NCBI RefSeq assembly: GCF_054482595.1
Contig: NZ_CM137008.1
DNA: 64,000 bases
Reading direction: 5' to 3' (one strand)
Shown: piece after piece, positions 45,301 through 54,300 of the stretch
How positions within the stretch are numbered: the stretch's first letter is position 1
How the letters are laid out: every line of letters starts with the position of its first letter
Program-made: the position numbers

Positions 45301-48300
45301 GGGTTACCGGACGAAAAGAACTTCTCAAACAAACCGTTAAAGTAGACAACACGAAGGCTGATGCCGTTAGTGCCTGGACGGAAGAAAGTGAGGGAATTTA
45401 CAAAGCAAGCTATACGGCCCATCTCATTGGCGACAAATTAACGGCCCAGCTGACGATGCCCGGCTGGCAAACCAAACATTCGGATGCGTTCAGTATTGCG
45501 GGTGATAAAGATACCGCCAAAATCGCTGCGATGCAGATCACCGCGAATAACGCAGTTGCCAGACGCGATCACAATACCGTCGCTGTGACGGTCAGGGATG
45601 TGCATCAAAATTTACTGCAGGGACAAAATGTTACCTTCACGGTCGTGAATGGTGCGGCGGTTTTTGCCGATCCAAACGGCGGTATTGTGACGACAGATAA
45701 AGACGGAATTGCCAGCGTTAACCTTGCCAGTGACCAGGCGGTAAACAGTCTTATCAAGGCCGAGATCAATGGCAGTAGTCAGTCTGTGGAAGTGAGCTTT
45801 ATCACTGGCGATATCTCGCAGCTGACCTCCACCATCAAGACGGACGATGTGTCATACACTGCGGGTGGCAAGATAAAAGTGTCCGTCACCCTTATGGATG
45901 AGCAGAAAAACCTGGTGAAAGGGATGGCTTCGCTGCTGGCGGGTAGCGGTGTGGTCGAGGTGAGCGGTACAGATAAAAATGAAACGGGTAACTGGAGCGA
46001 AGAGTCTGACGGCGTTTATACCACCACCCGAACCGCGAAGATTGCTGGCGATCGCCATTACGCCACGCTGAAACTATCGACATGGAGTAGCGCGCAGCAA
46101 TCCGATGCGTATGCCATCCGCGAAAGCGGAGCTGTGCTGGCTTATTCCTCCATCGTTACCGACAAAACGACCTACACCGCGGGCGGTGCGATAAAAGTTA
46201 CGGTGACACTCAAGGATAGCTATGAAAACCTGGTCGGGGGGCAACGAGACGCTATCAACCTGGCTATCCAGCTGCCAAATACAAAAGCGGAAAGCATCGC
46301 CTGGAATGAAGATCAAAAAGGAATTTATACCGCAACGTATACCGCCTTACTCCCTGGCACCGGTTTAAAAGCACAGCTACAGATGTCCGGCTGGGCGAAC
46401 GCTCTGACTTCAAATGATTACAGTATTAGTGGCGATGCCGCCAGCGCACAAATTGTCGCCATGCAAGTGACAACGGGTAACCCGGATGTGCTGGCGAATG
46501 GCAGCGATCGACATACGGTGAATGTCCGGGTGGAAGATCAGTTTGGCAATGTGCTGCCGGAGCAGACCGTCACCTTTACGGTGACGAAGGGGGCGGCTGT
46601 ATTTGCCAATGCAGGGCAGAGCGCAGATATCAGGACGGATGCGCATGGTATGGCAGAGGTTGATCTGAGCAGTACCGTAGCGGATGCCAGCACTGTTGAG
46701 GCTAAGGTCAATCAAAGCAGCGATAGTAAAACGGTGAACTTTGTTGCTGATGTCAGCACGGCGCAGATCGCTGATCTGGTGGTCATTAAGGATGGCTCAG
46801 TGGCAGACGGTTCGACGGCGAACACGCTGCGGGTGAGGGTGACGGATGCGTTCGGTAATGCGCTGGACGGGCAGACGGTCAGCGTGTTGGCGGACAACAG
46901 CGCAACGGTCGCTCCGACGGTTATCACCGAGCCGGACGGGACGGTGGAGATCTCTGTTACCAGCCAGACGGCGGGAGTCAGTGCGGTCACCGCCAGTATC
47001 AACAACAGCAGCCTGAGCCGGAACGTGACGTTTGTTGCCGATGTCAGGACGGCGAAGATCGCTGATCTGGTGGTGATGCAGGACGGCTCAGTGGCAGATG
47101 GCACGACGGCGAACACGCTGCGGGCGAGGGTGACCGATGCGTTCGGCAATGCGCTTGCCGGGCAGACGGTCAGCGTGACTGCAGGCAACAGCGCAACGGT
47201 CGCTTCGACGGTGACCACAAAGCCGGACGGGACGGTGGCGATCTCTGTTACCAGTCAGACGGCGGGGAGCAGTACAGTCACCGCAACCATCAACAGCAGC
47301 AGTCAGAGCCGGAACGTGACGTTTGTCGCGGATGTCAGGACGGCGAAGATCGCGGATCTGGTGGTCATTAAGGACGGCTCAGTGGCAGACGGTGCGACGG
47401 CGAATACGTTGCGGGCGAGGGTGACCGATGCGTTCGGGAATGCACTTGCCGGGCAGACGGTCAGCGTGTTGGCGGACAACAGCGCAACAGTTGCTCCGAC
47501 GGTCATCACAGGGCCGGACGGCACGGTGGAGATTTCTGTCATCAGCCAGACAGCCGGAATCAGTGCGGTCACTGCCAGCATCAACAGCAGCAGTCAGAGC
47601 CGGGACGTGACATTTATCGCCGATGTCAGGACGGCGCAGATCGCGGAGCTGGTGGTTATTAAGGATGGTTCAGAGGCAGACGGTGCGACGGCGAACACGC
47701 TGCAGGTGAAGGTCACCGATGCTAACGGCAATGCGCTTGCCGGGCAGACGGTCAGCGTGTTGGCGGACAACGGCGCAACGACTGCCCCGACGGTTATCAC
47801 CGAGCCGGACGGTAAGGTGGAGATCTCTGTTACCAGTCAGACGGCGGGAGTCAGTGCAGTCACTGCCAGCATCAACAACAGCACCCTGAGCCAGAACGTG
47901 ATGTTTATCGCCGATATCAGGACGGCGCAGATCGCGGAGCTGGTGGTTATTAAGGATGGTTCAGAGGCGGACGGTGCGACGGCGAACACGCTGCGGGCGA
48001 GGGTGACGGATGCGTTCGGGAATGCGCTTGCCGGGCAGACGGTCAGCGTGTTGGCGGACAACGGCGCAACGGTCACTCCGACGGTCATCACAGGGCCGGA
48101 CGGCACGGTGGAGATCTCTGTCACCAGTCAGACAGCCGGAATCAGTGCGGTCACTGCCAGCATCAACAGCAGCAGTCAGAGCCGGGACGTGACATTTATC
48201 GCCGATGTCAGGACGGCGCAGATCGCGGATCTGGTGGTCATTAAGGATGGTTCAGAGGCGGACGGTTCGACGGCGAACACGCTGCGGGCGAGGGTAACCG

Positions 48301-51300: not shown

Positions 51301-54300
51301 ACGGCACGGTGGAGATCTCTGTCACCAGCCAGACGGCAGGCACCAGTGCGGTCACTGCCAGCATTAACAGCAGCAGCCAGAGCCGGGATGTGACGTTTAT
51401 CGCCGATGTAAGAACGGCGAAGATCGCTGATCTGGTGGTCATTAAGGACGGCTCAGTGGCTGACGGCGCAATGGCGAACATGCTGCAGGTAAAGGTTACC
51501 GATGCTAACGGCAATGTGCTTGCCGGGCAGACGGTCAGCATGATGGCAGGCAACGGTGCAACGGTTGCCCCGACGGTGATTACAGAGCCGGACGGTACGG
51601 TGGAGATCCCTGTCACCAGCCAGACGGCGGGAGCCAGTGCGGTCACCGCCAGTATCAACAGCAGCAACGCGAGCCGGAACGTGACGTTTGTTGCCGATGT
51701 CAGGACGGCGAAGATCGCGGATCTGGTGGTCATTAAGGACGGCTCAGTGGCAGACGGCGCAATGGCGAACACGCTGCAGGTGAAGGTCACCGATGCGTTC
51801 GGCAATGCGCTTGGCGGACAGACGGTCAGCGTGACGGCAGGCAACAGCGCAACGGTCACTCCGACGGTCACCACGCAGTCGGACGGTACGGTGGAGTTCA
51901 GTGTCACCAGTCAGACGGCGGGAGTTAGCGCAGTCACAGCAACCATCAACAATCATAGCCTGAGCCAGAACGTCACCTTTGTACCGGGTGACGCATCGCA
52001 GCTCACTTCAACCGTTGAAACAAATAAGTCTAACTACACGGTTGGAGAGACCATCACCATCACGGTAACGCTCCGGGATGCGTTCGATAATCTGGTAACC
52101 GGTGCAGCTTCACAGTTAGCCGCTAATAGTGTGCTGACGGTGGATGGCACCGACCCGTCAGAAACGGGAAGCTGGGTTGAATCAGGTGGCGTGTATACCA
52201 CAACCCGAATGGCGACGATTGCCGGTACCGATCAGCACGCTAACCTGCAACTGCAGACCTGGAGTGATGGTGTAACGTCAGATCGCTATGACATACAGTC
52301 CGGTTCTCCGGCGCAAGCCACATCAACTATCGCCACGGATAAAAACGCATACACCGCTGGCGAGACGATAACCGTCGCCGTGACGCTGAAAGATGCGCAC
52401 GGTAACCTGGTTGAAGGGGGCGAGTCCTTACTGTCTGGTGATAACGTAACAGTGGAAGGAGCCGTACGTTCAGGAGAGTGGTCTGAAACTGCCGGTGTTT
52501 ATACTGCTACATGGTCGGCGCAAATGGCGGGAGACTCTCACCACGCGACGCTGACGTTGCCCGAGTGGGGCAGCAGTAAACAATCAGAGAGTTATTCCAT
52601 CCACAGTGGTGCTCCGGTGCAGGCAAATTCTGCTATCAGGACAGATAAATCGGCATATATCGCCGGGGAGCCATTAACTGTCACAATAACGTTGCGGGAT
52701 GAGTTTGGTAACCCTGCTTTAGGGCTGACATCAGAAGTCATCGAGTCTTATATCGATAATTTCGCGGTAGGTGGTGCAACTCCCGATTCTATGCAGTGGG
52801 TCGAGCAGAATAATGGTGAATATACCATTGTCTGGACAGCATGGGTTGCCGAGGAAAATCTGGTTGCCAGTCTGAAATTAAAAACATGGGCAACGGAGAT
52901 TAAGTCCTCATTATACGGAATACAACCAGGTGCGGCGGCACAAACTCAATCCACGATTGTCACGGACAAAACGAAATATATCGCTGGGGATAGCATAACG
53001 GTGACCGTTGTTCTTAAAGATGCCCAGGGTAACTTTATTACTGATGGTGTCGCGCAGCTTAATGAGGAAAACGTACAAGTCAGGAACGCTGATTCTATTC
53101 AAGGCAATAATTGGGTTTACAACGGCAATGGGCAATATCAAAGACAGTATATGGCGCATTTTGCGGAAGCGAACTTGAATGCGCAACTGAAGATGGCTGG
53201 TTGGAGCGATGCCAATTATTCAAAAAACTACACTATTAACAGAGGTGAAGTAAGTATGCTTCGTTCACAGCTTCGTATACGCGAAGTTTTAGTGGTAGCT
53301 GGGGCGGATATACCTGTTAGTGTTTTATTATCTGATGAATTTGGTAATCCTGTGAATGACGGTCTGGATTTGCTGACAGATGATGCAGTGTACTTACAAA
53401 ATGTGGAAAAGAAACATTGGTCCAGTTGGACATTTGTAGGTGATGGCAGATATGAGCGTACCTATATGGCTTACAAAGAAGGAGAAAACTTAAACTCTTA
53501 TCTACATATTAATGGTTGGTATGTAGGCGGGCAACCGTCTTATACCATCCTTCCTTTTGTGGAAGTCGAGTCGCTTAGTGTCAATGGTGCAAAATTCAGG
53601 GCGGCAGATGGTTTTCCCAAAACAGGGTTTGATGGTGCTAAATTTACACTGATATTAACCCACAATATGAAAAACACAGATTATAATTGGACCAGTGGCA
53701 TACAGGGTATTCAGGTCGATAGTAATGGTATGGTGACTTTAGAATTCATTATCAATAAAGAGGTTACTATTACAGGAACGCCGAAAAGCAATAAAGGGAA
53801 TAAAGTTACATATAAATTCTCACTGCAGAAATGGTTTATACCTCAAGGGATAATTCAGGAATCATGGAGTGAGATGAATTCATATTGTATTGGTAATGGT
53901 TATATACTACCGTCTAGTACGGATTTAGTTGGGAGTTCAACTAGCGGTGCTGTCCCGCGAAAAGTAGGTTCGTTATGGGGTGAATATGGTAATCTGACTT
54001 CGTATGACGGAATATTTCGCGCTGAACATTATTGGCTCGACAGCGGTATGATATTTTATCCAGGAGATGGTCATCTCTCGATTGCGCCACGTTCATCCCC
54101 ACTGTGTATGAAAACGTTCTGATATTATTTATGTTATTGCCCTGCATCAGCAGGGCAATTTATCTTCGCTCTTACGCAGAACTCCGCATCACACCAATAG
54201 TATTAAATTCATTTTTCACACTGAGCAAACGGGGGTCATGAAGCAACACATTTGACCATAAATCACTCTCTTTAATTAATTGTTGCCAGCGCTTTTCATA

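Follow-up and report, generated by a model that had tools for sequence, protein, structure and literature searches.

The window analysed here is a stretch of 64,000 nucleotides from contig NZ_CM137008.1 (NCBI RefSeq assembly GCF_054482595.1), which corresponds almost base for base to the first 64 kb of the Escherichia coli chromosome NZ_CP019359.1 (strain XH990). It contains iatC, an allele of air/eaeX (43296..54122, + strand), a single open reading frame (ORF) for an inverse autotransporter (type Ve) adhesin of 3608 aa, annotated in XH990 as 'inverse autotransporter adhesin IatC'. The stalk of this protein is encoded by 18 tandem immunoglobulin-like (Ig-like) units of 291 bp. It is very probably a genuine variable-length array of the type described for Periscope Proteins, e.g. 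SasG, Rib and Sgo_0707 (Whelan et al. 2021, PMC8201768; the review PMC9704523 includes inverse autotransporters), which recombines over evolutionary time and is stable within a clone. The array belongs to a familiar class of feature, and its gene already has a name; what is added is its verified copy number, the range of 2-25 units, the mosaic pool of variants from which the units are composed, and the clonal stability.

Anatomy of the repeat array

Tandem Repeats Finder (TRF) detects a single array at 46749-51980 with a period of 291, 18.0 copies, 85% matches, 0% indels and a score of 6836. In the register 46740+291*i all 18 units are modules of 97 aa in the frame of iatC; TRF, translation, a hidden Markov model (HMM) of the unit and Pfam together delimit the variable-length stalk of 18 head-to-tail Big_1 Ig-like units at 46740..51977 (+ strand). 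Pfam Big_1 matches each unit end to end (profile positions 2-93 of 93). Since the 97-aa segments on either side of the array clearly differ in sequence from the units, 18 is the right count. An earlier note on this stretch, made from the sequence alone, had given the same coordinates, unit size and copy number, with which TRF and the in-frame register agree, and had correctly described the array as the Ig-like stalk of an adhesin encoded by air; the locus is that of air/eilA.

The units are less alike than that note had assumed. Pairwise nucleotide identity ranges from 78.0 to 92.8% (mean 84.7%) without a single identical pair, so that 'near-identical' does not apply, and amino-acid identity from 67 to 92% (mean 80.4%; adjacent units 81.2%). 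The alternative motifs VIKDGS/VTQDNA, LRARV/LQVKV and AFGNAL/ANGNAL are present as quoted, but the differences are not clustered at a few codons: 139 of the 291 alignment columns vary (34, 37 and 68 at the first, second and third codon positions). Nucleotide-identical stretches between units reach 171 bp, the longest in-register exact run common to two units of the window, and in this respect the note was right; most runs, however, measure only 30-100 bp. With a Nei-Gojobori synonymous divergence (dS) of 0.38 and a dN/dS of 0.30, the units are old paralogues under purifying selection and not recent copies.

On the opposite strand the array and its proximal border (46410-51907, - strand) contain long ORFs of 168, 273, 384, 176, 169 and 273 aa. 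The two of equal length within the array are spaced exactly ten units apart, and the antisense ORFs are most simply stop-free reverse frames that recur with the unit, not genes.

Copy number of the window in independent assemblies

A 14-kb query (window 42000-56000) was compared by BLAST with complete genomes. It matches 13 of them, each in one ungapped alignment whose bit score implies 0 to ~3 differences; the alignment of genome 88COLEC extends only to query position 13459 and still spans the entire array. The 13 genomes derive from human, duck, chicken, pig, meat and environmental sources. Over window positions 1-25000, 12 of the 13 are likewise ~100% identical and therefore represent one clone, and the thirteenth, YZMc3-1, is 99.7% identical, its upstream region being more diverged. 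The 18-unit array is genuine and correctly assembled: independent assemblies agree on the number and order of its units. The verification of the copy number for which the earlier note had called is thus already contained in the 13 complete assemblies.

Copy number between lineages

Of 5426 complete E. coli assemblies, ~750 carry the gene. Twenty-seven loci were fetched one by one, some of them taken at even intervals along the ranked hits of a right-flank search, and the following counts refer to 25 complete genomes. Units were counted with an HMM built from the 18 units of the window, which separates array units (150-176 bits) from other Ig-like domains (at most 36 bits). The 25 genomes possess 2, 7, 10, 11 (three genomes), 14, 15 (two), 16 (two), 17 (two), 18 (four), 19 (two), 20 (four), 24 and 25 units. 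Spans in the 14-kb BLAST search, whose ranking favours genomes with 18 copies, add genomes with 5, 7, 11, 17 and 18 units; a query with the 2-unit allele of E105 left the left and right flanks unjoined. As the earlier note had expected, copy number does change, between lineages and in whole steps of 291 bp.

All units comprise 97 aa and are contiguous in every genome except E105 (L002), where two units are accompanied by an out-of-register fragment of 14 aa. The N-terminal flank has 1148 aa throughout, save in N96 (L018; 1017 aa), where the start call differs and the annotated start codon lies later, and the C-terminal flank has 714-721 aa. In EC581 (L028), iatC/air is a pseudogene with a frameshift and ~3 units, of which one has an internal deletion. 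The protein length now ranges from ~2070 to 4287 aa.

To our knowledge, the 2019 study by Goh and colleagues is the only functional paper on IatC. It gives IatC lengths of 2459-2965 aa and found no evidence that the count of tandem repeats varied (PMC6714894). The complete genomes, with 2-25 units, contradict the latter statement, and the window allele (3608 aa, 18 units) exceeds the reported lengths.

Mosaic composition of the units

Of the 139 columns that vary in the window array, 106 are biallelic. According to the four-gamete test, 59% of informative site pairs are incompatible; the incompatible fraction is 0.20 at distances of up to 5 bp and ~0.63 beyond 30 bp, i.e. linkage decays within ~30 bp. 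The pairwise homoplasy index (PHI) permutation test yields p=0.02. These values bear out the patchwork of alternative cassettes noticed earlier. A per-unit phylogeny, which had been proposed as a check, is rejected here, a tree of the units being meaningless with so many incompatible site pairs.

The mosaic extends across alleles. The left flank of other alleles is 97.9-99.0% identical to that of the window, while the best window unit for most foreign units reaches only 85-93%. Of 276 allele pairs, 245 allow fewer than 10% of their units to be matched at ≥97% identity, and altogether 267 distinct unit sequences occur in the 24 arrays analysed. Nevertheless, when 16 other alleles are compared with the window, 91.5% of their non-consensus bases recur in the corresponding column of some window unit, against a chance expectation of 45% if only the base is random and 20% if base and column are random. 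The arrays are therefore different shufflings of one common pool of variants.

Downstream of the array, the C-terminal passenger falls into two classes of 714 aa and 718 aa. The first 1500 nt 3' of the array are either 96-98% or ~89.5% identical to the window, and the left flank always 98-99%, which suggests breakpoints of allelic recombination in or near the array.

It is possible, though doubtful, that the stalk is a combinatorial mosaic in the stricter sense that old, mostly two-state variants are continually re-dealt among units and strains and that selection maintains the resulting diversity. The stalk surface would then be unique to almost each E. coli lineage, with anchor and tip remaining conserved. 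Candidate selective forces would be antibody or phage pressure, or the avoidance of misfolding between identical neighbouring domains, and the array would represent an intermediate-identity regime of Periscope Proteins in which switching speed is traded for sequence diversity.

A related reading, that immune or phage pressure diversifies the exposed stalk and makes the array a device for combinatorial antigenic variation beyond its role as a spacer, appears unlikely. It would account for arrays diverging far more than their flanks between lineages and for the large number of distinct units. Codons 50, 64, 80 and 92, with three or four common amino acids and a piN exceeding piS, are also in line with it, as are the variable positions, which in a structural model lie in loops and scattered within strands. 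The dN/dS between units given above and a pooled piN/piS of 0.34, however, indicate purifying selection, and synonymous sites are as mosaic as non-synonymous ones. Nor are adjacent units kept more different than distant ones, as an avoidance of misfolding would predict: no difference was found between them (85.3% identity for adjacent, 84.6% for distant units). Neutral shuffling of old paralogous differences suffices to explain the pattern.

Changes between close alleles

Among independent isolates, five pairs separated by no more than one flank difference possess arrays that are identical or one base apart, for example E57 (China) and CREC-544 (Korea) with 15 units, and GN03139 (USA) and KFu014 (Japan) with 11 units. 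In the 14-kb BLAST search, furthermore, groups of 8-11 complete genomes share one span.

Length changes are evident in one lineage with at most two flank differences, in which NA3664 has 25 units, E300010 has 24 and 23CRST032 has 7. E300010 has lost one unit relative to NA3664, with a complex junction. The array of 23CRST032, which differs from NA3664 at 2 of 5589 flank positions, consists of NA3664 units 10-16 with chimeric first and last units, i.e. it results from two nine-unit deletions. The two junctions differ in the length of the sequence shared there: at least 24 bp at one, ~5 bp at the other, which is at the 3' end. Exact duplicate units occur in LR14 (unit 15 equals unit 16) and A16 (unit 5 equals unit 7) and are fresh unit duplications. 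The deletions and duplications postulated in the earlier note are hence realised, with a simple in-register chimeric junction in one of the 23CRST032 deletions.

The window and strain 48 (20 units, flank 98.9% identical) differ in another manner. Units 6-14 match with only 2 differences in ~2.6 kb, whereas dense patches of differences occur elsewhere, e.g. a 365-bp stretch with 40 differences that reaches from unit 15 into unit 16, and the array of strain 48 is longer by two units. An exact donor for the 365-bp patch was not found among the sampled arrays, the best in-register match being 91-97%. Because the central block is more similar than the flank and the patch lacks an exact donor, exchange between strains is, as far as the sequences indicate, at least as likely a source of these patches as conversion within the array. 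'Ongoing gene conversion', as proposed in the earlier note, is not borne out: the closest allele pairs differ by single bases, and patches appear at a flank divergence of ~1% without an exact donor in the same array.

The array could alternatively be a fast contingency locus, in which slipped-strand or RecA-mediated events frequently alter the stalk length within populations and so provide phase-like variation during colonisation. The 25, 24 and 7 units in alleles with nearly identical flanks and the exact duplicates just mentioned could be read in this way, and Periscope Proteins have been described as altering their repeat number between similar strains (PMC8201768). Such switching is nonetheless improbable. 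The 18-unit array is present in 13 of 13 members matched over 14 kb, 12 of which are near-identical over 25 kb of the upstream core genome; the five pairs with near-identical flanks show no change in length, and the groups of 8-11 complete genomes retain the same span. Moreover, units diverged by ~15%, with exact runs of 171 bp at most, should recombine less often by orders of magnitude, and a unit of 291 bp leaves the frame intact, hence no on/off frameshifting. 'Hypervariable', in the sense of fast switching, is accordingly not a fitting term for an array whose copy number and unit order are the same in all 13 clone members, and slipped-strand mispairing, in the sense known from simple sequences, is inapplicable to a 291-bp unit.

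Proposed mechanism

The anatomy, domain identity, copy-number polymorphism, mosaicism and clonal stability of the array are observed; its recombination mechanism, its spacer function and any selective value of its length are inferred. The N-terminal beta-barrel anchors the protein in the outer membrane, and the passenger consists of a chain of Ig-like domains with the invasin D4-D5-like tip at its end. Within this chain the 18 Big_1 units may act as spacers that set the projection of the tip, as suggested by the architecture, by the known rod shape of invasin and intimin and by the concept of Periscope Proteins (PMC8201768, PMC9704523). At ~3.5 nm per domain, a value taken from the dimensions of invasin, 18 units would measure ~60-65 nm.

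In-register recombination between units would delete or duplicate whole units and could so produce the 2-25 copies found across lineages. Short-tract exchange among units and alleles would reshuffle the old pool of variants and provide almost every lineage with its own mosaic, between flanks that remain 98-99% identical. Between units with exact runs of ~30-370 bp in common, homologous or homeologous recombination, or else template switching, may give rise to the gains and losses. In E. coli, a divergence of ~15% together with mismatch repair makes homeologous recombination rare, by orders of magnitude. With units ~85% identical and a dS of 0.38, the array is therefore constant among the members of a clone.

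Several points weigh against this reading or narrow it. The 3' junction of 23CRST032 lies in only ~5 bp of common sequence, and that of E300010 corresponds to no simple crossover; plain crossover by RecA therefore does not account for everything. For the patches by which the window and strain 48 differ, neither array contains an exact donor, and they may stem from exchange within one array or from import from other strains; the closer agreement of the central units, compared with a flank difference of 1.1%, points to exchange between strains. Rates of change are apparent rates, read purely from genome comparisons. The spacer function and the length per domain are presumed by analogy, and a two-domain AlphaFold2 (AF2) model with a predicted template modelling score (pTM) of 0.55 is too uncertain for a statement on rigidity.

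One-unit and partial genes in databases

That the 18 copies are a collapsed or expanded assembly artefact, and that copy-number differences between genomes merely reflect assembly quality, is very improbable: the one-unit and truncated database genes described below could be taken as signs of it, but the 13 concordant complete assemblies come from different laboratories, identical multi-unit arrays, down to the protein accession, recur in isolates from different countries (E57/CREC-544, GN03139/KFu014), long reads can tell apart units at ~85% identity, and every length difference comprises whole in-register units, save the 14-aa partial unit of E105.

At least 41 IatC proteins of 1959-1964 aa in the database possess exactly one unit. 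They carry 33 distinct single units, which differ even between proteins with identical flanks. A search with the N-terminal 1148 aa also returned, among the matches listed, many 'partial' proteins that end inside the array. In its flanks, the draft contig JAIZKS010000014.1 (6001-11892; GCA_020416285.1; locus L022) is 100% identical to a clone for which at least 11 complete genomes give 17 units; the contig itself contains one unit, composed of unit 1 (36 nt) fused to unit 17. According to k-mer paths, only 9 nt at the fusion junction are common with the presumed 17-unit parent. Such a short junction argues against a simple de Bruijn collapse, although bulge-popping could yield it. The gene looks like a misassembly; a real deletion is also possible, a genuine junction in a complete genome being equally short.

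Lengths in the protein database were rejected as a census of copy number: among the matches listed none exceeds 2008 aa, the 3608-aa protein of the window is missing, and draft assemblies probably dominate. The earlier warning about short-read misassembly is consequently justified in general, by the many one-unit and array-truncated genes, without application to this window. One-unit and 'partial' versions of the gene cannot be trusted at face value.

Domains of the IatC protein

By sequence, the window gene is a member of the IatC/Air family of inverse autotransporter adhesins. The NCBIfam model NF040978 (Ve_IatC_Nterm) matches with 3040.6 bits against a cut-off of 2400 and is covered over its positions 1-1065 of 1065. 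Three related assignments were rejected: the protein scores 403 bits with the NCBIfam intimin model (cut-off 1400), 411 bits with the YrIlm N-terminal model (cut-off 750), and falls below the cut-off of the invasin family model.

Near the N-terminus, a weak LysM-like segment (aa ~69-117; 43500..43646, + strand) is presumably a periplasmic peptidoglycan binder; Pfam LysM matches at aa 80-98 with 15.6 bits, under its cut-off of 20.9, and a LysM domain has been reported in IatC (Goh et al. 2019, PMC6714894). The outer-membrane beta-barrel translocator IAT_beta follows at aa 149-423 (43740..44564, + strand; Pfam PF11924, 362 bits, profile positions 3-279 of 279). The region between barrel and array (44565..46739, + strand) contains proximal, diverged Ig-like domains, for which Pfam reports five Invasin_D3 stretches and three Big_1 matches. 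The unit HMM detects them only weakly, at aa 734-834 and 1044-1148 with 32-33 bits, compared with 161-176 bits for the array units. The last proximal domain (46449-46739, + strand), of the Big_1 family and 97 aa long, is a relative of the array units.

Distal to the array, non-repeated Ig-like passenger domains (51978..53576, + strand) are recognised by Pfam as Invasin_D3 and other Ig-like families within the C-terminal 714 aa. The protein ends in an invasin D4-D5-like tip (53577..54119, + strand) with an Ig-like and a C-type-lectin-like module, which is matched by Pfam Invasin_D4 (2.9e-13) and, in a phmmer search against the PDB, by invasin 1cwv residues 296-460 (E=4.9e-18, last ~180 aa). From this likeness a lectin-like adhesive cap is predicted. 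IatC of strain SMS-3-5 is surface-exposed and promotes biofilm formation (Goh et al. 2019, PMC6714894).

The AF2 model of units 1-2 consists of two beta-sandwich domains, with a predicted local distance difference test score (pLDDT) of 79 and the pTM given above. Its best PDB matches in Foldseek are intimin D0-D1, invasin, intimin D00-D0, InvE and InvD (top entries 6tpl, 1cwv and 6tqd).

Genomic context and nomenclature

The annotated gene order is nepI, iatC, eilA, sipD-like, sipB-like, sycD-like and yicS. An identical order from nepI to yicS was found wherever the whole island was fetched, and nepI-iatC-eilA at other loci. The gene eilA (54172..55869, - strand) encodes a HilA-family regulator, annotated as such and with its function according to PMC4210603. 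It is followed by the eip island (56072..61155, - strand), annotated with genes for a SipD-like tip protein, a hypothetical protein, a SipB/YopB-like translocon subunit, a small hypothetical protein and a SycD-like chaperone. The eip island of enteroaggregative E. coli (EAEC) 042 includes the adhesin gene eaeX/air, and EilA is reported to control eaeX/air and the eip genes (PMC4210603). The SipD-, SipB/YopB- and SycD-like genes of the window are translocator and chaperone genes of type III secretion and stand without genes of the secretion apparatus in the annotated part (34000-64000); the eip genes are reported to depend on the ETT2 system, which is located elsewhere on the chromosome (PMC4210603).

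RefSeq uses either iatC or EaeX/Air for alleles at this one locus: a gene of 10257 nt in the same context is named iatC in one genome and EaeX/Air in another (loci L013 and L014). The name 'air' used in the earlier note thus designates the right locus, with RefSeq calling the window allele iatC. The protein WP_000907453.1 bears the label EaeX/Air, although its gene is just as long as the iatC prototype of SMS-3-5.

A pair of genes for a RelE/ParE-family toxin and a helix-turn-helix (HTH) antitoxin is located between yicN and nepI (41016-41682, - strand). In several other genomes the toxin is annotated as frameshifted.

Comparison with known systems and significance

The locus between nepI and eilA and the N-terminal family model are common to the window gene, IatC (SMS-3-5) and Air/EaeX (EAEC 042), as are the barrel, the Big_1 repeats and the lectin-like tip and, tentatively, the weak LysM-like segment. 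Like Periscope Proteins, the window protein is a surface protein of one chain in which domains longer than 50 aa are repeated in tandem, its stalk would project a distal adhesive domain, and its repeat number differs between strains in long-read genomes. Its repeat identity (mean 80% aa, 85% nt, dS 0.38) lies at the lower edge or threshold of that class, and, unlike in typical members, the units are old mosaics, not freshly homogenised, with no change of length within clones.

YrIlm/YrInv of Yersinia ruckeri is likewise an inverse autotransporter with a long Ig-like array. The YrIlm repeats are cited as almost identical, and tandem repeats as a cause of misassembly (PMC6714894). The window units, in contrast, are ~85% identical, and the protein belongs to a different orthologous group, its score lying below the YrIlm family cut-off. 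Invasin (Yersinia) and intimin of enteropathogenic and enterohaemorrhagic E. coli (EPEC/EHEC) have the type of secretion, the barrel family and the Ig-like stalk fold in common with IatC, whose tip resembles invasin D4-D5; they differ in their 4-5 unique, non-repeated extracellular domains, which are fixed in number.

The IatC orthologue of Escherichia albertii is 66-67% identical over the N-terminal 1100 aa, has the same architecture and is also length-variable (1660, 1763, 1866 and 1969 aa; P0087, P0088, P0091 and P0100). It amplifies, however, a different Ig-like domain of 103 aa (SAITLDRTEYAAGEPITVTVTLRDAQGN...), and the copies examined are identical but for one residue, compared with ~80% aa identity among the E. 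coli units. Finally, the array differs from a simple-sequence contingency locus in that its unit corresponds to 97 codons, with all alleles save one pseudogene in frame, and in that all 13 clone members have the same 18-unit length.

The known picture of inverse autotransporters and Periscope Proteins remains unchanged, with one documented case added. Genomic studies of EAEC, extraintestinal pathogenic (ExPEC) and Shiga toxin-producing E. coli (STEC) routinely score air and iatC as markers of virulence or colonisation, mostly from short-read data. Between lineages, the ~12-fold difference in repeat number could alter the reach of the adhesive tip past the O-antigen or capsule.

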